Notes under the pieces: generated by a model
The model's database searches: none
What the model saw: only the letters and a program-made list of their open reading frames with translations
What the model was told of the DNA's origin: nothing
Origin: an uncultured Gemmatimonadales bacterium
Lineage (GTDB): Bacteria > Gemmatimonadota > Gemmatimonadetes > Gemmatimonadales > GWC2-71-9
DNA length: 64,000 nt
Reading direction: 5' to 3'
NCBI GenBank assembly: GCA_963730915.1
Contig: CAVSTR010000004.1
Coordinates: 535,014-599,013 of the forward strand
Shown: positions 20,994 through 30,010 of the stretch, in pieces
Layout of the letters: every line of letters starts with the position of its first letter
How positions within the stretch are numbered: the stretch's first letter is position 1
Program-made: the position numbers and the translations under genes

Positions 20994-22346
20994 ATGTTCA
21001 TGAAACCTCAGCGCCTTCTGGTGATCCTGTGTGCTTCGGCTGCCCTGCCCGGCTGCGTCTCGCCTCCTTCCCAGACGCCCAGTTTGCCCGTAGGCCATCC
21101 TGCCGGCTCATCGTTCACCAAGCCGATCTCGTTCGCCATCCTGGAGGACTACGACAAGGGCGCGTCGCTCAGTGAGGTGGCAAAGGACTTCGCGCTGTTC
21201 AAGGAGCTGGGAGTGACGATGTGGCGCGGCAGCTTCGGGTGGGACGACTACGAGCCGGAGCCGGGCAATTTCGACTTTGAGTGGCTGAGACAATTTGCCG
21301 CGCTGGCTGACAGCAGCGGAGTCTCGCTCCGACCCTATCTCGGGTACACCCCGGCCTGGGCGGGAAAGCGGGGAAAGGACGACCAGGTGTGGAACGATCC
21401 GCCGGGAGACGTGACCCGCTGGAGCCGCTTCGTGCGGGCACTGGCGGGCGCGTTGGCTGCGTACCCCAGCATCAAGTCATACGAGATCTACAATGAGGAG
21501 AACGTGCCACTCTGGTGGGATGGTACCCGGGAGGACTACGCCGCGGTGCTCAGCGCGGGCGCCGAGGCGGTTCGGGCTGGAGATCCCGACGCCGAGGTGT
21601 TGCTGGGCGGCATGGTCTGGCCTGACCTCGACTGGCTGGAAGGAGCCTGTGAGAACGGCAGCGGACCATTCGATGTATTGCCGTTCCACGCCTATCCCGA
21701 AACATGGACTCCTGAATCGGTGACGGTGGAGACCTATCTCGGACCGGACTTCAAGCGGGAATTCCTCGACCCGGCGGACGAACAGTGTGGGCGAAAGCCG
21801 GTCTGGATCAATGAGACGGGGTTCGCGACGACTCCGGGAAAGACCGAACGGCAGCAAGCCGACTGGTGGGTGCGGGCGTTCGCCACCTTCCTCTCGGCGA
21901 GACGGGTTGAGCACATCGGCATCTACGAGATCAAGGATCAACGACAGGATACGCCGGTCATCGGTGATGCTCCCAACTACTACCTCGGACTGCTGCGGGT
22001 AGACCGAAGCCCGAAGCTCGCGTTCCACACCGTAAAGATGCTGGTTCGCCTGTTCGGTACGGATTCGATCACCGTGGCGGACGATGAGCTTGTGGTGCAG
22101 GCGCGGAAGGGTTCGAGGGGGAAGCTGTACCATCATCTCTTCATCCGGCCCGATGGCAGGCAGCTGATCTTTGCCTGGAGCCGAGGGTCCTCTCCTACAG
22201 TGGACCTTCGGCTCACTCGCTCAGGCCGCCGGGTGACCTCGTACAGCCTCGATGGCAGAGGCACTCAGTGGCGACAGTTCGATGGACGAGTGATCCGGCA
22301 GGTCGAGCTTACCCCCGGTGAAGCGAGGGTGTTCGAGGTTCACTAA
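20994..22346 (+). CDS. glycoside hydrolase lipoprotein (TIM-barrel clan GH-A, GH5/GH39-like)
   Basis: Lipobox ALPGC. Candidate catalytic Glu contexts YEIYNEEN and VWINETGF. Confidence 0.6.
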   Translation: MFMKPQRLLVILCASAALPGCVSPPSQTPSLPVGHPAGSSFTKPISFAILEDYDKGASLSEVAKDFALFKELGVTMWRGSFGWDDYEPEPGNFDFEWLRQFAALADSSGVSLRPYLGYTPAWAGKRGKDDQVWNDPPGDVTRWSRFVRALAGALAAYPSIKSYEIYNEENVPLWWDGTREDYAAVLSAGAEAVRAGDPDAEVLLGGMVWPDLDWLEGACENGSGPFDVLPFHAYPETWTPESVTVETYLGPDFKREFLDPADEQCGRKPVWINETGFATTPGKTERQQADWWVRAFATFLSARRVEHIGIYEIKDQRQDTPVIGDAPNYYLGLLRVDRSPKLAFHTVKMLVRLFGTDSITVADDELVVQARKGSRGKLYHHLFIRPDGRQLIFAWSRGSSPTVDLRLTRSGRRVTSYSLDGRGTQWRQFDGRVIRQVELTPGEARVFEVH

Positions 22347-23855
22347 ATGCTCGCTCCCGATCGCTGCCACGTCCCCGATCACCGTGACCACCGGCGAGAC
22401 GAGGCCGTCCCGCTCGGCCGCCTCGGCGATCGTTGCCAGAGTTGCTCTGGTGACCCGTTGATCCGATGTGGTAGCCGACTGAATGCATGCTGCCGGTGTC
22501 GAGGGGTTGCGCCCCCGCGCGATGAGCTCGGCCGCGATCGGGCCGAGATTCGAGCGACCCATCAGGATGACGAGGGTGTGTTCGGGAAGGTTGGGAAGGT
22601 CGGGAAGGCTGCTGCCATCCGCCGTCTGCCCCGTAATCACCGAGAACGAGCGCGCTATCCCGCGCGCCGTCAGGGGAATGCTGGCTGCCGCAGGAGCTGC
22701 AATCGCACTCGTGACGCCGGGGACGACGCAAACGCGCACCCCCGCCCGGCGGCAGGCTTCCATCTCCTCGCTGCCGCGGCCGAAGACGAACGGATCGCCG
22801 CCCTTGAGACGGACCACCGACTTGCCCTGCCGAGCGTGCTCCACCAGCAGATCATTGATCTCGGCTTGCGAGTACGCCGCGTGCCCCGGTGCTTTCCCCA
22901 CGTCGATCAACAACGCGGCCCGTCCGACCTCCCCCAACAGGTCGCTGCCTATCAACCGGTCGTGGATCACCACGTCGGCGCGGCGAAGCAGCTGCAGCCC
23001 GCGCACGGTGATCAGGCCGGGATCGCCGGGACCACCGCCGACCAGGTGCACGATTCCCGCCGGCGCGGAGGGTCTGGTTGAGCGCGAGACGCGGGAAGCT
23101 TTCCTACCGGACCGCCGAGCAGATGGCGCGTTCCGCCGGGCCAGGTCAACGATGATGTCCACAAGCCCGGGATAGCTTCCGATGGCCTGATCCACGAGCA
23201 CCGTGCGTCGCCGGTTGCCCTCCGCCAGCCTTCGCGGGATGTCGTCCAAGACGTGACTGCCTCCACCGATCAGAAATGGGACCAGGATTAGGTGCTGGGA
23301 TGCCGCCGTATGGATCAGCGTCTCGACCGGTGGGTCGTCATCGAGGAAGGCGGTGAGGATCTCTGCTGCAACTCGGCGGCGCCGCAACAAGTCCGCCAGA
23401 CGGAGTGTAGTAGTCCGGCTCTCCCGGTGCCGCTTCGTCCCATGTCCCACCAGTGCCAGCGACACCGAGCCACGATCCAGGCGGTGCTCGTGCATCAGCT
23501 CGGCTACTCGCCGTGCTACGAGTGCTCCGATCGCGGGATGGGCGCCGATCGGCAGGGTCTGCCGCAGCCGGATCTCGGAGTACCGCGCGTTCCGCGCCAG
23601 GGCTCGGGGCAGCACGACATCGCTATAGTGTCCCGAGCTGGTCATGAACGGCACTACCGTGACCTGGTCTGAAGTGATCTCATCCAGAACGGTGTGGAAG
23701 CCGGGCTCACCCTGGTGAAATGTCACGGCCACCTCCTCGAAGAGCTTGCGGCCTCGCAAATTTTCCGCAACTCGTCGGACCAGCGCGTTGACAGCCGGCT
23801 CTTGTCGCGAGCCATGGGCCGCGAGAAGCAGTGCCCTTCGGCCGGGGGTAGTCAC
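22221..23855 (-). CDS. cobA: fusion of two CbiX-type sirohydrochlorin chelatase modules with uroporphyrinogen-III C-methyltransferase
   Basis: LLLAAHGSRQEP and LALVGHGTKRH are CbiX modules. VHLVGGGPGDPGLITVRGLQLLRRADVVIHDRL is the SUMT motif. The 3' end overlaps the convergent GH gene by 126 bp, so the C-terminal tail is suspect. Confidence 0.75.
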   Translation of the reverse strand: MTTPGRRALLLAAHGSRQEPAVNALVRRVAENLRGRKLFEEVAVTFHQGEPGFHTVLDEITSDQVTVVPFMTSSGHYSDVVLPRALARNARYSEIRLRQTLPIGAHPAIGALVARRVAELMHEHRLDRGSVSLALVGHGTKRHRESRTTTLRLADLLRRRRVAAEILTAFLDDDPPVETLIHTAASQHLILVPFLIGGGSHVLDDIPRRLAEGNRRRTVLVDQAIGSYPGLVDIIVDLARRNAPSARRSGRKASRVSRSTRPSAPAGIVHLVGGGPGDPGLITVRGLQLLRRADVVIHDRLIGSDLLGEVGRAALLIDVGKAPGHAAYSQAEINDLLVEHARQGKSVVRLKGGDPFVFGRGSEEMEACRRAGVRVCVVPGVTSAIAAPAAASIPLTARGIARSFSVITGQTADGSSLPDLPNLPEHTLVILMGRSNLGPIAAELIARGRNPSTPAACIQSATTSDQRVTRATLATIAEAAERDGLVSPVVTVIGDVAAIGSEHLVNLEHPRFTGGKLDLPDHSSIELSPLSASAIEAVRGHPAA

Positions 23856-25564
23856 CCCGCTACCTGCAGCTGTACCAGGTCGAAGGTTGGGGACTCCCGG
23901 CCGGTCACCGCCGTTCTCGCGACTGGCCGAGCGAGAATTCTCTGGTAAAAATCGCCGAGCCCTTCATCCGCCCCGCGCTCAGTGGCCCAGCGTGCCAGCA
24001 GAGGCTTGAGTGTGGAGAGCAGCTCACTCGTAGGAACATCGGCGCGGTAGAGATCCACGAGCCGGTCGCCGGCCAGGCTGCCACCCACGTAGACGTGGTA
24101 CAGGTCCAGCGAGCGCCCCACGAACGCGATGTCCGCCGTATACGGGCGTGCGCAGCCGTTCGGGCAACCGGTCATCCTGATGGTGAGTGGCACGTCGCGA
24201 AGTCCGAGGTCGCTGAGCTCTGCCTCGAATTGATCCAAGAGATCGGGTAGGGCTCGCTCGGACTCTGCGACCGCCAACCCACAGGTCGGAAGGGCAGGGC
24301 ATGCCATCGAAAAGCGGCGCGCCGCGGAGAGCTCCAGCGGAGGAATCACGCGATGCTCCCGGAGAATCCGTTCGACCGCCGCCGCACCATCGGCATCCAG
24401 GTCTGTGAGCAGGAGATTCTGCTGACCCGTGAGGCGAATCCCCGGATGGTATCGAGTGATGATATGGTGCAGCGCTGTCTTGACGTTCCCCACGATCCGG
24501 CCGCTCTGGATGAACACGCCATAGAAGAACCGACCATCGGGTTGGCGGTGGCGCCCGAGATGGTCGTGGAATGGCAGCGGCGGAAGGATCACCGCAGGCT
24601 CGAGCTCAAAGGCAGCGCGCTGCCGGAACTCGTCCCGGAATCGATCCATGCCCCACTCCGCTAGCAGGTACTTGAGGCGGGCATGGCGACGATCGCTGCG
24701 GTTTCCATGATCGCGGAAGATCGCGGCCACGATGCGCACGGCTTCCACGCCATGCTCCGTCGCTATGAAGCCGAGAGGTTGGGCCAGCCGCGCCGTGGTG
24801 TCGGCCTTGTTGTGGGTCATGCCGAGCCCACCGCCGACCAGCAGATTGAAACCTCGAATGCGGCCTTCACTCACCACCGCCAGTAAGCCTACGTCCTGCG
24901 AGTAGATGTCGACGCAGTTGTCGACCGAGAGTCCCACCGCGGTCTTGAACTTTCGAGGCAGGTAGTGGTCGCCGTAGAATGGCTCCTCCTCAGCCGAAGA
25001 GACCTGTTTTTCTCCGTCGAGCCAAATTTCGTGGTATGCGCGTGACGATGGGCGCAGCTCCTTCCCGAGCGATTCGGCGACATGTTTCACTACGGCGTGG
25101 TCGGTATCGGCCAGTGGTGCGGAGCAGCCCATGACATTTCGCTGCACATCACCGCAGGCAGAAATGGTGGTGAGCAACTCCTCGTTGATGCCGGCGATGG
25201 TGGCCTTGAGTTTTCCTTTCAGCACACCGTGGAACTGGAAGCCCTGCCGAGTGGTGACGCGCAGGGTGCCATTCGCATGCTCGTCGGCAATTCTTTCCAG
25301 TCTCAGGTACTGATCCGCGGTTACGGCGCCGGCCGGAATGGCCACGCGGACCATGAAGGAGTACGCCTTCTCCTCGCCGGCAGCTTCTCGCTGCCGGCGC
25401 TCGTCGCGGGAATCCTGCTGGTAGGTGCCGTGGAACTTGAGCAGGTGGATGTCGTCCGCCCCAAAATGCGTCGCGTCGGATGCGAGTGTCTCGGCGATGC
25501 TGCCGCGCAGGTGCCGGCCGTGCCGCTTGGCGACTTCCACTTTTGATTCGGGTTTCAGTGCCAT
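23852..25564 (-). CDS. cysI: assimilatory sulfite reductase hemoprotein (siroheme/4Fe-4S)
   Basis: KFHGTYQQDSRDERR, MACPALPTCGLA and TGCPNGCARP Cys cluster. Confidence 0.9.
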   Translation of the reverse strand: MALKPESKVEVAKRHGRHLRGSIAETLASDATHFGADDIHLLKFHGTYQQDSRDERRQREAAGEEKAYSFMVRVAIPAGAVTADQYLRLERIADEHANGTLRVTTRQGFQFHGVLKGKLKATIAGINEELLTTISACGDVQRNVMGCSAPLADTDHAVVKHVAESLGKELRPSSRAYHEIWLDGEKQVSSAEEEPFYGDHYLPRKFKTAVGLSVDNCVDIYSQDVGLLAVVSEGRIRGFNLLVGGGLGMTHNKADTTARLAQPLGFIATEHGVEAVRIVAAIFRDHGNRSDRRHARLKYLLAEWGMDRFRDEFRQRAAFELEPAVILPPLPFHDHLGRHRQPDGRFFYGVFIQSGRIVGNVKTALHHIITRYHPGIRLTGQQNLLLTDLDADGAAAVERILREHRVIPPLELSAARRFSMACPALPTCGLAVAESERALPDLLDQFEAELSDLGLRDVPLTIRMTGCPNGCARPYTADIAFVGRSLDLYHVYVGGSLAGDRLVDLYRADVPTSELLSTLKPLLARWATERGADEGLGDFYQRILARPVARTAVTGRESPTFDLVQLQVAG

Positions 25565-25582: not shown

Positions 25583-25640
25583 GGGTCTAGGGTCTAGGGT
25601 CTAGGGTCTAGGGTCTGACGTCTAGGCGTCTAGCGTCTAG
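25583..25640. repeat. heptanucleotide tandem repeat (GGGTCTA x4 perfect, then 4 degenerate units)
   Basis: Read directly: gggtcta gggtcta gggtcta gggtcta gggtctg acgtcta ggcgtcta gcgtcta. It spans the cysH stop and the cysH-cysI spacer. Confidence 0.85.
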
Positions 25641-26331
25641 CCTCATGCAGCCCACACTCCGTCTTGTCCCACTGCTTCCACCGTCCTGCACGCGAGTAGT
25701 GCGCCGGCGACGCGCCCTCGACCGCTGAGGTGCAGTGGGTGCATCCGATGCTCGGGTAACCGCGCTCATGCAGGGGGTTGTAGGGTACGTCGTGCTCGCG
25801 TACGTAATCCCAGACCATCGACCGATCCCAGCCGGCCAAGGGGCAGACCTTCAGGATCTGGTACTGCCAATCCCATCCCACCAGCTGCGCGTTGCTGCGT
25901 ACGTTGCCCTGACTTCGGGTAATGGCCGTGACCCAGATGTCGGCTCCGGCCAACGCCCCGTGCATGGGCTCCACCTTCCGGATACGGCAGCACCGGTCGG
26001 GATTCCGATGCCAGAGCTCGGGGCCGTGGATGGCTTCCTGTTCGTCGGGAGTAAGCGAGGTGCCACGATTGACGAACGTGATAAGCGGATACCTGCGCAC
26101 CATCCTGTCCCGCAGGGCATACGTCTCGGGAAAGAGAAACATGGTGTCGAGATAGACCACCGTGGGCGCTGCGCCCTGCGCCGCGTACATGTCGATCAGC
26201 GCGCAGCCTTCCATTCCGAACGAGGTCGTGATCACGATTCGTCGATTCCGGAAACGCTCTATCGTCCAACCGATGAACTGGTCGGTCGGTGTGGTCTCGT
26301 CGATCCGCTCCAGGGCTGAGCCGATGGTCAC
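25630..26331 (-). CDS. cysH: APS/PAPS reductase (Fe-S type)
   Basis: ITTSFGMEGCALIDM, CCRIRKVEP, GCTHCTS and C-terminal ECGLH. The ORF-track TTG start (26355) sits inside the terminator U-tract. GTG 26331 is preceded by GGAGAA at 7 nt and is preferred. Confidence 0.85.
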   Translation of the reverse strand: MTIGSALERIDETTPTDQFIGWTIERFRNRRIVITTSFGMEGCALIDMYAAQGAAPTVVYLDTMFLFPETYALRDRMVRRYPLITFVNRGTSLTPDEQEAIHGPELWHRNPDRCCRIRKVEPMHGALAGADIWVTAITRSQGNVRSNAQLVGWDWQYQILKVCPLAGWDRSMVWDYVREHDVPYNPLHERGYPSIGCTHCTSAVEGASPAHYSRAGRWKQWDKTECGLHEARR

Positions 26332-26353
26332 AATCTGCTTCTCCGTAGACAGC

Positions 26354-26387
26354 AAAAGAAAAGGCCCGCGGAATCCTTCCGCGGGCC
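26354..26387 (-). terminator. intrinsic terminator / attenuator upstream of cysH
   Basis: Minus strand reads GGCCCGCGGA-AGGAT-TCCGCGGGCC: a 10-bp GC stem and 5-nt loop, followed by TTTTCTTTT. Confidence 0.6.
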
Positions 26388-26418
26388 GGGCAACACTGAA
26401 ACGCTCGATGCGTCGCCG

Positions 26419-26550
26419 CTAGAAGGTCTCTTCCGGGTGAAGGTTCGCCATACAGGGGCACATACACATGCAGGTGCAGCCGGCACCGGCAGCAGCCGGG
26501 CAGGTAATGGCGGAGGAGAGAGCGATCGCGTGTGCGGCAGTCATATGCAT
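26419..26550 (-). CDS. 43-aa Cys/Met-rich mini-ORF (candidate leader peptide of the sulfate-assimilation operon)
   Basis: My own translation of the minus strand: MHMTAAHAIALSSAITCPAAAGAGCTCMCMCPCMANLHPEETF-TAG. It is not in the ORF track (under 60 aa) and lies 31 nt upstream of the terminator. Confidence 0.4.
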   Translation of the reverse strand: MHMTAAHAIALSSAITCPAAAGAGCTCMCMCPCMANLHPEETF

Positions 26551-26639
26551 ATTTATGCCTGGTGATGTGTGATTTGTCAAGAAGAGCACCTTGGGATGAG
26601 GTGTTGCGTTCGGAATGAGGTGCTGCGCTATGTTACTTC

Positions 26640-28100
26640 ATGCCTCTGTCGCGATTCCATGTGTTGTTCGCCCTGCTTCTTCCGGCCGCCGTGGCGGCCC
26701 AGGACATCCCCCGGACGGAGTACGCGGCCCGCCGCGATTCGCTGCTCGCCCGAATCGACAGCGGAGTCGTCATCGCATTCGGGGCTCCGGACGCCGTGGG
26801 CATCCGGCGGTGGGTCCAGCATCCCGCGTTCCGTTATCTGACGGGATTTCTGGAGCCCAATGCGGTCCTGGTGCTGGTGAAACGAGGCGGGTCGAACAGC
26901 GGCACCCTTTTCACGGCTTCGCGTGATCCGCGTCGTGCCCTCTACGATGGCTTTCCCCCCGACTCGACCACGGTCGCCCGGCAGACTGGCCTGGTAGTGC
27001 GCTCCCTCCCCGCGCTGCGTCCCACCGTGGATTCACTGGTGGCGTCGGGGCTGCCGGTTCACGAGCTGCGTGACTTTGCTACCGCGGACGCGGCTACGCA
27101 GGACACGCTGACGCGTGGCGGCCGCTTCATCGCTGACCTCACGACGCGGACGCAGGGACTAACTGTTCGGAGCCTGCATCCGGCATTGGACAGTCTTCGG
27201 CAGAGAAAGAGCCCTGCCGAGCTGAAGCTTTTGCGTCAGGCGATCACGGTCACGGTCGAGGCGCACAAGGATGCGCTCCGCACGACCAGGCCGGGCATGT
27301 GGGAGTACCAGGTGGAGGCCCTCGTGGAGAGCGTCTTCCGCCGCTCCGGCTGCGATGGACCATCCTTCACGTCGATCATCGGATCGGGTCCCAACTCGAC
27401 CCAGTATCACTACATGACCAACAACCGTCGGATGCAGGCGGGTGAAGTCGTCGTCATGGATATCGGTGCGGCCTGCGGTGGCTATGCGGCGGATGTCACC
27501 CGAACCATTCCGGTCAGTGGCCGGTTCACGCGCGAGCAACGCGCCATCTACCAGCTGGTGCGCGATGCTCAGGCCGCGTCCGAGCGAGTCGCCAAACCCG
27601 GCGCGCCCTGGCAGGCCTGGCGGGATTCAACTCGCGCAGTAGAGGCTCGAGGCCTGGCTCGGCTGGGGCTCACCGAGTCGGTGGACGCCACTTTCGATCC
27701 GCCGTGGGCCGAACGCTGCAAGACCGACCCGGTGTACTGCACCCAGGCATTTCTGTATATGGCACACGGTCTGGGTCATGGCATTGGCCTGGAAGTGCAC
27801 GATCCACCTCATCCCTGGTTTGGCACCGGCACGTTTCAGGTGGGCGACGTGTTCACCATCGAGCCCGGCATCTACATCAGCACTCGGCTGCTCGATATGC
27901 TCGCCGACACGCCCAAAAACCGGTCGATGATCGCCAAGGTGCGTCCGGTGGTCGAGCGGTACCAGAACATCGGGATTCGAATCGAGGACGACTACCTCAT
28001 CACACGTGACGGGGTGGAATGGCTGTCGCGGGCGCCACGGGAGATTGCCGAGATAGAGCGGTTGAGGGCGACCACCTCCACCTCATCCCGAACCCAGTGA
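26640..28100 (+). CDS. pepP: Xaa-Pro aminopeptidase (M24B), secreted
   Basis: Signal peptide MPLSRFHVLFALLLPAAVAAQ. Metal-ligand contexts DIGAACGGYAADVTRT, HGLGHGIGLEVHD, IEPGIY and IRIEDD. Confidence 0.8.
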   Translation: MPLSRFHVLFALLLPAAVAAQDIPRTEYAARRDSLLARIDSGVVIAFGAPDAVGIRRWVQHPAFRYLTGFLEPNAVLVLVKRGGSNSGTLFTASRDPRRALYDGFPPDSTTVARQTGLVVRSLPALRPTVDSLVASGLPVHELRDFATADAATQDTLTRGGRFIADLTTRTQGLTVRSLHPALDSLRQRKSPAELKLLRQAITVTVEAHKDALRTTRPGMWEYQVEALVESVFRRSGCDGPSFTSIIGSGPNSTQYHYMTNNRRMQAGEVVVMDIGAACGGYAADVTRTIPVSGRFTREQRAIYQLVRDAQAASERVAKPGAPWQAWRDSTRAVEARGLARLGLTESVDATFDPPWAERCKTDPVYCTQAFLYMAHGLGHGIGLEVHDPPHPWFGTGTFQVGDVFTIEPGIYISTRLLDMLADTPKNRSMIAKVRPVVERYQNIGIRIEDDYLITRDGVEWLSRAPREIAEIERLRATTSTSSRTQ

Positions 28101-28145
28101 GGGATCTACTCAAGGGGTTCGCAGTCCGTTAACGTTCATCTGCCG

Positions 28146-28326
28146 CCAGGGGCATCGGGCTGCTCTATTGAGAGATCCCTCGCTACGCTCGGGATGACAT
28201 CTCAATCGAGCAAACTCGATTGAGATGTCACCCTTGGAACCTGATCCGGCTGATACCGGCGAAGGGAGCGCGGCGCCACGCGAACTCTTCGCGTCAACGC
28301 TCCCTTTCTAGATGGGGAGCATTTTT
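28146..28326 (+). promoter_or_regulatory. TPP (THI-box) riboswitch with expression platform
   Basis: GGGGCA...TTGAGATGTCACCCTTGGAACCTGATCCGGCTGATACCGGCGAAGGGAG matches the THI-box core. Downstream, CGCTCCC is an anti-SD element and GGGGAG is an SD 7 nt before ATG 28327. Confidence 0.8.
28174..28198 (+). repeat. REP-like unit (GATCCCTCGCTACGCTCGGGATGAC) inside the riboswitch
   Basis: 24/26 identical to the unit at 30148-30173. Confidence 0.7.

Positions 28327-30010
<1,684 letters not shown>

Follow-up and report, generated by a model that had tools for sequence, protein, structure and literature searches.

A conserved cysteine-codon leader with an intrinsic terminator, a probable transcription attenuator, upstream of the cysH operon in uncultured Gemmatimonadales

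We analyzed a 64,000-nucleotide (nt) stretch of DNA from an uncultured Gemmatimonadales bacterium (contig CAVSTR010000004.1, positions 535,014 to 599,013; hereafter, the window), concentrating on a short leader directly upstream of the sulfate-assimilation gene cysH. The leader lies on the minus strand, inside a 308-nt gap that separates cysH from a divergent gene for an M24 Xaa-Pro aminopeptidase (26640 to 28100, plus strand). It comprises a promoter-like sequence, a mini-open reading frame (ORF) rich in Cys and Met codons, and an intrinsic terminator, and to judge from its conservation in two phyla it most likely turns on the cysH operon when cysteine, and perhaps methionine, is short. The parts of the leader and the genes behind it are as follows.

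26575 to 26580, minus strand: −35 box TTGACA of the putative leader promoter; TTGAC[AGT] at a fixed offset to the ATG in 21 of 21 leaders compared
26551 to 26557, minus strand: −10 region CATAAAT (CATAAA with a 17-nt spacer, or ATAAAT with an 18-nt spacer), kept in 13 of the 14 family-A leaders
26419 to 26544, minus strand: leader mini-ORF of 41 codons and a UAG stop, beginning at the second ATG, MTAAHAIALSSAITCPAAAGAGCTCMCMCPCMANLHPEETF-stop, assigned by translation and by geometry shared with relatives
26449 to 26478, minus strand: candidate sensor codons CTCMCMCPCM (of 10 codons, 5 are for Cys and 3 for Met), read from the translation; the Cys run is common to 21 of 21 leaders
26354 to 26387, minus strand: intrinsic terminator, a stem-loop (26387 to 26363) and U-tract (26362 to 26354), from a terminator scan (−23.4 kcal/mol)
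25630 to 26344, minus strand: cysH (phosphoadenylyl-sulfate reductase), GTG start 26331, Shine-Dalgarno (SD) sequence GGAG 26344-26341; PAPS_reduct and NF002537, 2.9e-63
25564 to 23852, minus strand: sulfite reductase hemoprotein gene, by Pfam and NCBIfam; start of the downstream operon portion 22221 to 25564
23855 to 22221, minus strand: fusion of a CbiX chelatase and a uroporphyrinogen-III methyltransferase for siroheme synthesis, by Pfam and NCBIfam

On the minus strand, TTGACA (26580-26575) is followed by the 17- or 18-nt spacer, CATAAAT (26557-26551), and ATGCATATG, which supplies two in-frame ATGs at 26550 and 26544. The frame then stays open to UAG 26421-26419, after which come a 31-nt spacer, the hairpin, the U-tract, and cysH. 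Translation from ATG 26550 to the stop gave MHMTAAHAIALSSAITCPAAAGAGCTCMCMCPCMANLHPEETF-stop, with 6 Cys and 5 Met, reproducing the 43-codon ORF and the CTCMCMCPCM run described in an earlier note that was made from the sequence alone. The strong terminator that the note had placed 31 nt after the stop codon was found independently by the terminator scan; its hairpin, GGCCCGCGGAAGGATTCCGCGGGCC (= GGCCCGCGGAAGGAUUCCGCGGGCC), and its position agree with the note, but the stem contains 11 pairs, 9 of them G-C, rather than 10 bp. The hairpin is followed by TTTTCTTTT (UUUUCUUUU). The proposed cysH-cysI-cobA operon was confirmed by Pfam and NCBIfam, with the refinement that the third gene is the CbiX-methyltransferase fusion; this gene content indicates that the product of the operon is sulfide for cysteine synthesis. 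The GTG start of cysH and its SD sequence were also upheld, and GGAG-N7-9-GTG is kept in related loci, in which cysH is likewise followed by an NIR_SIR gene. Because the U-tract ends only 22 nt before this GTG, there is no space for a promoter between the terminator and cysH, and transcription of the operon must pass the terminator, as the note had argued in calling read-through necessary for expression.

Six-frame translation of the window yielded 14 short ORFs with at least 3 Cys in 6 residues, indicating that dense Cys is not rare by itself in GC-rich DNA. A terminator lies within 110 nt downstream of just one of the 14, and this one is the leader ORF. In a scan of 2 kb, 4 terminator-like sites were found against 1.0 expected, with the leader hairpin by far the strongest. 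The signal above chance is thus the combination of ORF and terminator, together with its conservation, and not the density of Cys codons.

For comparison, cysH loci were retrieved by the CysH protein alone, blind to the leader, which gave 8 loci from genomes and 10 from contigs, the latter set with CysH homologues at 65-79% identity. The window CysH is 71-86% identical to that of six Gemmatimonadales metagenome-assembled genomes (MAGs) and 59% identical to that of two Phycisphaerae MAGs, placing the window in Gemmatimonadales. A Cys-run mini-ORF and an intrinsic terminator lie directly upstream of cysH in all 18 loci, which span Gemmatimonadales and Phycisphaerae/Planctomycetota. We also scanned metagenomes with the DNA pattern ATGTGYATGTGYNNNTGYATGG and obtained at least 120 loci; the matches listed were mostly chance or low-complexity sequences, and two true members (L054 and L124) were among them. 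The 21 leaders compared here are that of the window, the 18 retrieved by protein, and these two. They form six sequence families, which differ in promoter spacers, ORF bodies, and terminator sequences and whose peptides are alike in the Cys run alone.

Family A: 14 leaders including that of the window; ...CxCxCxCM...(E/D)(T/P)F-stop
Family B: L129 and L138; ...CCCM...DRTT-stop
Family C: L007 and L008, from Phycisphaerae; ...GGVCMCCC...
Family D: L131, from a CysH cluster named Planctomycetota; ...CRCECCC...
Family E: L133; ...ACCCMPACMGVSMCNC...
Family F: L139; ...DCGCACCLCMC...

The Cys run takes the forms CxCxCxCM, CCCM, CMCCC, CRCECCC, CCCMPACM..MCNC, and CGCACCLCMC. The order and spacing of the parts are shared: the distance from the first base of TTGAC[AGT] to the ATG is 35-38 nt in 21 of 21 leaders, although the sequence of the promoter spacer is variable; the ORF has 20-43 codons, 3-7 of them for Cys; every leader reaches its stop 27-36 nt after the last Cys codon; and the terminator follows the stop by 22-50 nt. 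A canonical G+C-rich hairpin with a U-tract is present between the ORF and cysH in 21 of 21 leaders. Its stem is invariant throughout family A, and the other families have different sequences at the same position. In all 14 family-A leaders, the ATG fixed by the promoter opens a frame that ends at the UAG inside the invariant CCUUCUAGCG. The ATG-to-UAG distance takes six values in this family (99-129 nt), and the frame is kept each time, from which we infer that it is read. An open frame is present in 21 of 21 leaders despite the changes in length.

Met codons adjoin the Cys run in five of the six families, which by our estimate would be rare at a background of about 2% Met. Within family A, Cys positions are fixed whereas Met codons are replaceable, as in L134 (CTCACACM) and L135 (CACMRACACM). 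The proposal of the earlier note that sulfur amino-acid codons act as the sensor thus stands for Cys, which is invariant, but not equally for Met, which is a frequent companion. By analogy with thrL, where Thr and Ile are paired, a leader that senses both Cys and Met is plausible, if on balance doubtful.

We considered whether the unit might instead be an independent small gene, encoding either a Cys-rich peptide with a function of its own (to bind metal or sulfur, or as the precursor of a modified peptide) or a small RNA (sRNA) of ~190 nt, which would be co-expressed with the operon and have no part in sensing. The unit is compact, with its own promoter and strong terminator, and the alternation within the family-A motif CMCMCxCM is strikingly regular. 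An Rfam scan of the leader at E ≤ 10 gave weak matches to sRNA models only, resting on the terminator hairpin alone, and a scan of the whole window at the gathering score gave none. However, the six families share no peptide feature besides the Cys run, and the conservation at the C-terminus spans different reading frames and follows an RNA helix (P1, described below). Moreover, the unit always immediately precedes cysH and is oriented like it, no promoter intervenes, and a peptide homology search gave no annotated homologue. We therefore regard an independent small gene as highly improbable.

The −35/−10/ATG geometry puts the ATG at about +1/+2 in 21 of 21 leaders. CATAAAT is found without change in 13 family-A leaders, and L134 has AATAGT. 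In families B-F, a spacer of 17-18 nt separates the −35 box from a TAnnnT-type hexamer, and another 6-7 nt (9 in L133) lie between this hexamer and the ATG; the sequences seen at this offset outside CATAAAT are TACCGT, TAGACT, CACAAT, AACAAT, AATAGT, TAGGCT, TACGCT, and CATATT. No conserved SD-like sequence was found upstream of either leader ATG among the leaders compared. The earlier note had taken ATG 26550 as the start, which would add MH to the peptide. We judged this less likely: ATG 26550 directly abuts the −10 element and is probably situated 5′ of the transcription start, whereas ATG 26544 has the offset shared with all relatives and is probably, although not certainly, the start. This arrangement suggests that the leader ORF is translated from a leaderless mRNA, a reading that we consider reasonably probable. 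A table in PMC10783764 lists a low value (22) for Gemmatimonadetes in what is probably its SD-usage column, which would agree weakly with a leaderless start. A strict scan of the window for TTGACN-N16-19-nAnnnT-N5-8-ATG/GTG gave 0 matches, the leader itself failing the A2/T6 rule, and so lends leaderless starts no general support in the window. A perfect 10-bp palindrome, ATATGCATAT, at 26543-26552 (minus strand) covers the end of the −10 region, the presumed transcription start site, and both ATGs. Most family-A leaders have it, but because it is broken in five (L006, L054, L124, L136, and L140), we rejected it as an unlikely operator.

The earlier note had not identified an antiterminator. 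A candidate emerged from complementarity between the region of the stop codon and the 5′ arm of the terminator.

26415 to 26426, minus strand: 5′ strand of the proposed antiterminator, CCUUCU-A-GCGGC, overlapping UAG 26421-26419
26386 to 26375, minus strand: terminator 5′ arm, doubling as the 3′ strand of the proposed antiterminator

The stop-codon segment (ACCUUCUAGCGGCG) can pair with the terminator 5′ arm in all six families, and in each of them the complementary segment overlaps the stop codon or sits just 5′ of it. In family A, ACCUUCU(A)GCGGC pairs with GCC(C)GCGGAAGG (−15.7 kcal/mol; 26426-26415 with 26386-26375 in the window). The corresponding pairings are CCU(A)GCGG/CCGCAGG in family B; GCCUG(A)CGGG/CCCGCAGGC and UGCCU(A)GCGGG/CCCGCAGGCA in family C (−17 to −22 kcal/mol; the stop-codon A forms a bulge); UCCUG(A)CGGG/CCCGCGGGA in family D; UCUCCUG/CGGGAGA in family E; and AUCCCG..GGC/GCC..CGGGAU in family F. 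In 8 of 21 leaders, among them that of the window and the two each from families B and C, no segment elsewhere in the leader pairs better with the arm than the one at the stop codon. Alignment of 13 family-A leaders shows CCUUCUAGCG to be invariant, wobble and post-stop positions included, and the spacer that follows it varies.

We then modeled the effect of ribosome position by folding only the RNA left free on the 3′ side of the ribosome, as far as the terminator loop. With the ribosome stalled at the last Cys codon, the minimum-free-energy structure was the helix between the stop-codon segment and the terminator arm in representatives of all six families. Mean pairing of the arm was 0.59-0.90 in this state, compared with 0.27-0.45 with the ribosome on the stop codon, and was higher in the stalled state for 20 of 21 leaders. 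Dinucleotide-shuffled sequences also paired with the arm, at about 0.55-0.65; few shuffles surpassed the observed pairing in families C and D or in most of family A. When one representative per family was combined, the Fisher p value was 4.6e-4 (9.7e-4 with other representatives). The search for an alternative structure, which the earlier note had named as a check, thus gave a candidate in six families with moderate statistics, and the modeling supports the antiterminator moderately as a property of the families; from the window alone it is not demonstrable. We lean slightly toward the stop-codon-overlapping segment as the antiterminator.

Two further helices are predicted in the leader.

26511 to 26519, minus strand: P1 5′ strand UCUC-C-UCCG, early in the ORF, from RNAduplex
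26427 to 26435, minus strand: P1 3′ strand CGGA-A-GAGA, a purine block just 5′ of the antiterminator strand, from RNAduplex
26389 to 26417, minus strand: P2, a hairpin (GGCGACGC / GUGUUGCC) that the predicted terminated fold places in the stop-to-terminator interval

In P1, the purine block GAGAGA (CGGAAGAGA in the window) pairs with an early pyrimidine block, xUCUCUC, and the helix encloses the Cys codons. Around the family-A core UCUCUC/GAGAGA, the flanking pair is A:U in 4 distinct sequences, G:C in 3, and U:A in 1. The covariation score of P1 was 0.133, compared with 0.062 in shuffles, and was reached by 8 of 500. Helices of different sequence occupy the P1 position in L134, L133, L007, and L138. 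The codon frame of the purine block differs between members (CGA-GAG or AGA-GAU), indicating that the constraint is on the RNA and that the 'RETF/RDPF' end of the peptide is a by-product. A hairpin at the P2 position is predicted in other families too, and was not recovered as an alignment consensus.

Constraints of this kind might suggest a switch independent of translation, in which a riboswitch, or a site for a regulatory protein or sRNA, would control the terminator, and the ORF would be incidental. The RNA-level constraints are real (the invariant CCUUCUAGCG, P1, P2, and the invariant terminator), and the palindrome spans the start region. On the other hand, beyond the weak sRNA-model hits no Rfam family matched even at E ≤ 10, and the palindrome is broken in the five family-A leaders named above. 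The 5′ two-thirds of the leader varies in sequence and length, yet the open frame and the Cys run are always kept, and six unrelated families keep the codon logic and the spacing, which a ligand-binding fold would not. We consider such a switch very improbable. Riboswitch and known-leader readings were rejected, as the Rfam scans of the leader and the window contained nothing relevant.

The leader most likely attenuates transcription through the position of the ribosome and thereby senses the charging state of tRNA-Cys, possibly also that of elongator tRNA-Met. In the proposed mechanism, a sigma-70-type promoter (TTGACA at 26580) would start transcription at or within 1-2 nt of ATG 26544. When Cys-tRNA is plentiful, the ribosome would reach the UAG and cover the purine block and the CCUUCUAGCGGC segment; the terminator (26387 to 26363) would then fold as it is made, and RNA polymerase would stop 22 nt before cysH. 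When Cys-tRNA is scarce, the ribosome would stall in CTCMCMCPCM, about 30 nt upstream of the stop, leaving the stop-codon segment free to pair with the emerging terminator 5′ arm; CCUUCUAGCGG is the segment whose pairing with the arm is proposed to drive regulation. With the terminator blocked, cysH-sir-cbiX/cobA would be transcribed. P1 (26519-26511 with 26435-26427) might sequester the purine block, which would otherwise form a hairpin with CCUUCU, a role that is tentative at best. The leader would then alternate between P1 plus the antiterminator and the purine-block/CCUUCU hairpin plus the terminator. A multivalent version, in which the interleaved CMCMCxCM integrates the charging of tRNA-Cys and tRNA-Met, a five-segment relay (P1, purine block, stop-codon antiterminator, and the terminator arms) has the stop codon in the antiterminator, and the module is ancient or was shared horizontally between Gemmatimonadota and Planctomycetota together with cysH, is conceivable but rather unlikely.

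The attenuator interpretation of the earlier note is supported by these results. It had named loss of the mini-ORF in relatives, lack of an alternative structure, and an independent cysH promoter after the hairpin as signs against an attenuator; the mini-ORF is present in 18 of 18 cysH loci and six unrelated families, an alternative pairing is predicted, the hairpin is followed by only 22 nt before cysH, with no room for a promoter, and none of the checkable signs that the note had named was found.

Several observations weigh against an attenuator of this type. In the local-fold shuffles, p was 0.40 for the window and 0.66 for family E, with several family-A members likewise weak, and shuffles of the simple duplex gave p values from 0.001 to 0.63 per leader. 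The terminated fold (the GGAAG/CUUCU hairpin, P2, and the terminator) has a predicted energy of −37.7 kcal/mol, compared with −19.1 kcal/mol for the antiterminated one, and as a consequence of this 18.6 kcal/mol gap the antiterminator would have to win kinetically. In the model, the antiterminator strand could be drawn into local hairpins (GGAAG/CUUCU and P2) before it meets the terminator arm. RNAalifold on family A returned the invariant terminator and a 3-bp stem only, with zero covariation; since both strands are invariant, no covariation between terminator and antiterminator can appear within this family. Folding of the whole leader with ribosome masks gave arm pairing of about 0.5-0.9 in every state and was uninformative because the RNA is GC-rich. 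A consensus promoter scan called no promoter at the leader, because the family-A −10 region lacks the canonical A2/T6. A search for RNA runs containing the leader sequence found DNA metagenomes only; the organism is known from metagenomes alone. Finally, the model departs from the trp attenuator, and from the super-attenuation of the classical systems, in predicting read-through when the leader ORF is not translated at all.

The classical attenuators of enterobacteria are trpL, hisL, leuL, thrL, pheL, and ilvL, and in trp the terminator is more stable than the antiterminator, which acts kinetically. Like them, the cysH leader has a short ORF rich in codons for the end product and, immediately ahead of the first biosynthetic gene, an intrinsic terminator, and in the proposed mechanism an alternative pairing hides the terminator 5′ arm and the position of the ribosome decides. 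Three of five classical features are present: the short leader ORF, codons for an amino acid of the pathway, and an intrinsic terminator without a later promoter. The cysH leader differs in its putative sensor, cysteine (with Met), which lies outside the textbook examples, and in being apparently leaderless rather than SD-led. Its regulatory codons lie about 10 codons before the stop instead of adjoining it, the proposed antiterminator strand includes the stop codon, and the extra helix P1 surrounds the sensor codons. It has no sequence similarity to the classical leaders, and no Rfam leader family matched.

The S-box (SAM-I) riboswitch controls Bacillus sulfur genes including cysH by sensing S-adenosylmethionine (SAM) through a structured aptamer, with no translation involved; S-box control of sulfur genes in Bacillus was reportedly described by Grundy and Henkin in 1998, a work cited in PMC1262725. 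The cysH leader shares with it sulfur-assimilation targets and a terminator/antiterminator output in a 5′ leader. No SAM aptamer was detected in the Rfam scans of the leader and the window.

Cys-rich short ORFs (sORFs) of mycobacteria provide the only dissected case of Cys-sensing leader ORFs. Canestrari et al. 2020 (bioRxiv 10.1101/834739) found that polycysteine leaderless sORFs, such as Ms5788A and Rv0815A, attenuate translation through SD sequestration; transcription termination was explicitly excluded, and attenuation by a Cys upstream ORF (uORF) was stated to be previously undescribed. Two 2026 papers on M. tuberculosis build on this work. As is probable for the cysH leader, a leaderless Cys-run ORF lies upstream of cysteine/sulfur genes, and stalling at the Cys codons relieves repression, as proposed here. 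In mycobacteria, however, the SD sequence is held in a very stable duplex with the Cys tract, whereas the output of the cysH leader would be an intrinsic terminator. Moreover, the family-A Cys codons mostly alternate (CxCxCxC) where the mycobacterial ones are consecutive, and the phyla differ. In predicted folds of the window, the Cys codons do not pair with GGAG 26344-26341, and the peptide homology search detected no homologue of the leader peptide, including sORFs of the Ms5788A/Rv0815A type, with whose peptides it has only Cys residues in common. Since the mechanism of SD sequestration does not apply, the cysH leader falls outside the mycobacterial family.

These systems raise the possibility that the cysH leader is a Cys-sensing uORF that does not act through its terminator, but controls cysH translation through access to the SD sequence, or Rho-dependent polarity, with the hairpin serving as a constitutive, leaky terminator or as a stabilizer. 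That the only experimentally dissected polycysteine leaderless sORF acts translationally (bioRxiv 10.1101/834739) is consistent with this possibility, as is the weak evidence for an antiterminator from the window alone. Against it, all 21 leaders have a G+C-rich hairpin with a U-tract, in differing sequences, whereas mycobacterial and other actinobacterial leaders are noted for lacking such terminators (PMC1262725). The cysH SD sequence is located beyond the terminator, predicted folds do not pair it with the Cys codons, and the conserved spacing from stop to terminator, like the complementarity at the stop codon, suits a terminator switch. A route other than the terminator therefore seems very improbable to us.

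Seliverstov et al. 2005 (PMC1262725) described Cys-run leader peptides of actinobacterial cys/cbs genes, with the run near the stop and without a conserved terminator, and suggested Rho-dependence. Those leaders, too, are short Cys-run ORFs upstream of cys operons that came from comparative genomics; they lack a terminator hairpin, whereas in the cysH leader the terminator is the most conserved part. Two cases concern cysS. Brewer et al. 2021 (PMC8632094) predicted the uORFC-8-2 motif, a two-Cys uORF and terminator upstream of cysS in Rhodobacterales, and de Groot et al. 2014 (PMC4007540) predicted a leaderless 10-amino-acid (aa) cysS leader with 2 Cys in Deinococcus deserti, with the transcription start mapped at the start codon. 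They have in common with the cysH leader a Cys-codon uORF and predicted ribosome-mediated attenuation, and uORFC-8-2 also has a terminator stem and U-run. They precede a tRNA synthetase gene, have two Cys codons, and occur in Alphaproteobacteria/Deinococcota, whereas the cysH leader precedes a sulfate-reduction/siroheme operon, has 3-7 Cys codons often accompanied by Met, and occurs in Gemmatimonadota/Planctomycetota. An Rfam scan of the window region gave no match to uORFC-8-2-like motifs. A literature search for a leader-peptide attenuator of cysH or sulfate assimilation found nothing further, with incomplete coverage, so that absence is unproven. The kind is known, both as leader-peptide attenuation and as Cys-sensing uORFs, and a terminator-type Cys leader of a cysH operon appears to be undescribed.

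Leader-peptide attenuation is a textbook mechanism from whose list of amino acids cysteine was long missing; the Cys leader ORFs that have been dissected, in mycobacteria, are translational, and the terminator-type ones of cysS are only predicted. If the proposed mechanism is correct, canonical terminator/antiterminator control would extend to assimilatory sulfate reduction, in phyla that are poorly studied, mostly uncultured, and almost without known regulatory mechanisms. The leader also offers a rule for recognition (an ATG fixed by the promoter, a Cys run, a stop ~30 nt later, and a terminator ~30 nt further) and a compact candidate for a cysteine-responsive genetic switch suited to in vitro testing.

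Some observations concern cysH gene calls and the surroundings of the leaders. The longest cysH ORF in the window (25630-26355, minus strand) begins at a TTG within the terminator U-tract, and many public CysH gene calls have 246-333 aa, compared with ~233 aa, which suggests that cysH starts are routinely placed too far upstream, inside the leader or even beyond it; such calls could be corrected. The terminator of L139 is about 170 nt from cysH, compared with 22 nt in the window. The neighbors of the leader vary: a gene for a pyridoxal phosphate (PLP) enzyme of Cys/Met metabolism lies upstream in L139 (1-251), and thiC is nearby in L138 (1-191), as in the window. In L002 (~2150-2280) and the equivalent region of L004, tandem 7-mer arrays (GGGCTAT, TGGCTAT, GTGACTA, and GCGACTA variants) separate the leader promoter from the divergent gene upstream; the window lacks them.

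Elsewhere in the window, a thiamine pyrophosphate (TPP) riboswitch at 28138-28285 (plus strand) precedes thiC (28403-30010); it scored 50.9 bits (E = 3.5e-9) against a gathering score of 54.3 and was missed by the gathering-threshold Rfam scan of the window. A 219-aa ORF at 21477-22136 (minus strand), without a Pfam or NCBIfam match, directly follows the cbiX-cobA fusion and may be an additional member of the operon. The divergent M24 aminopeptidase gene (26640, plus strand) has TATGTT 5 nt upstream of its ATG and, by this spacing, may give rise to another leaderless transcript from the same intergenic region.

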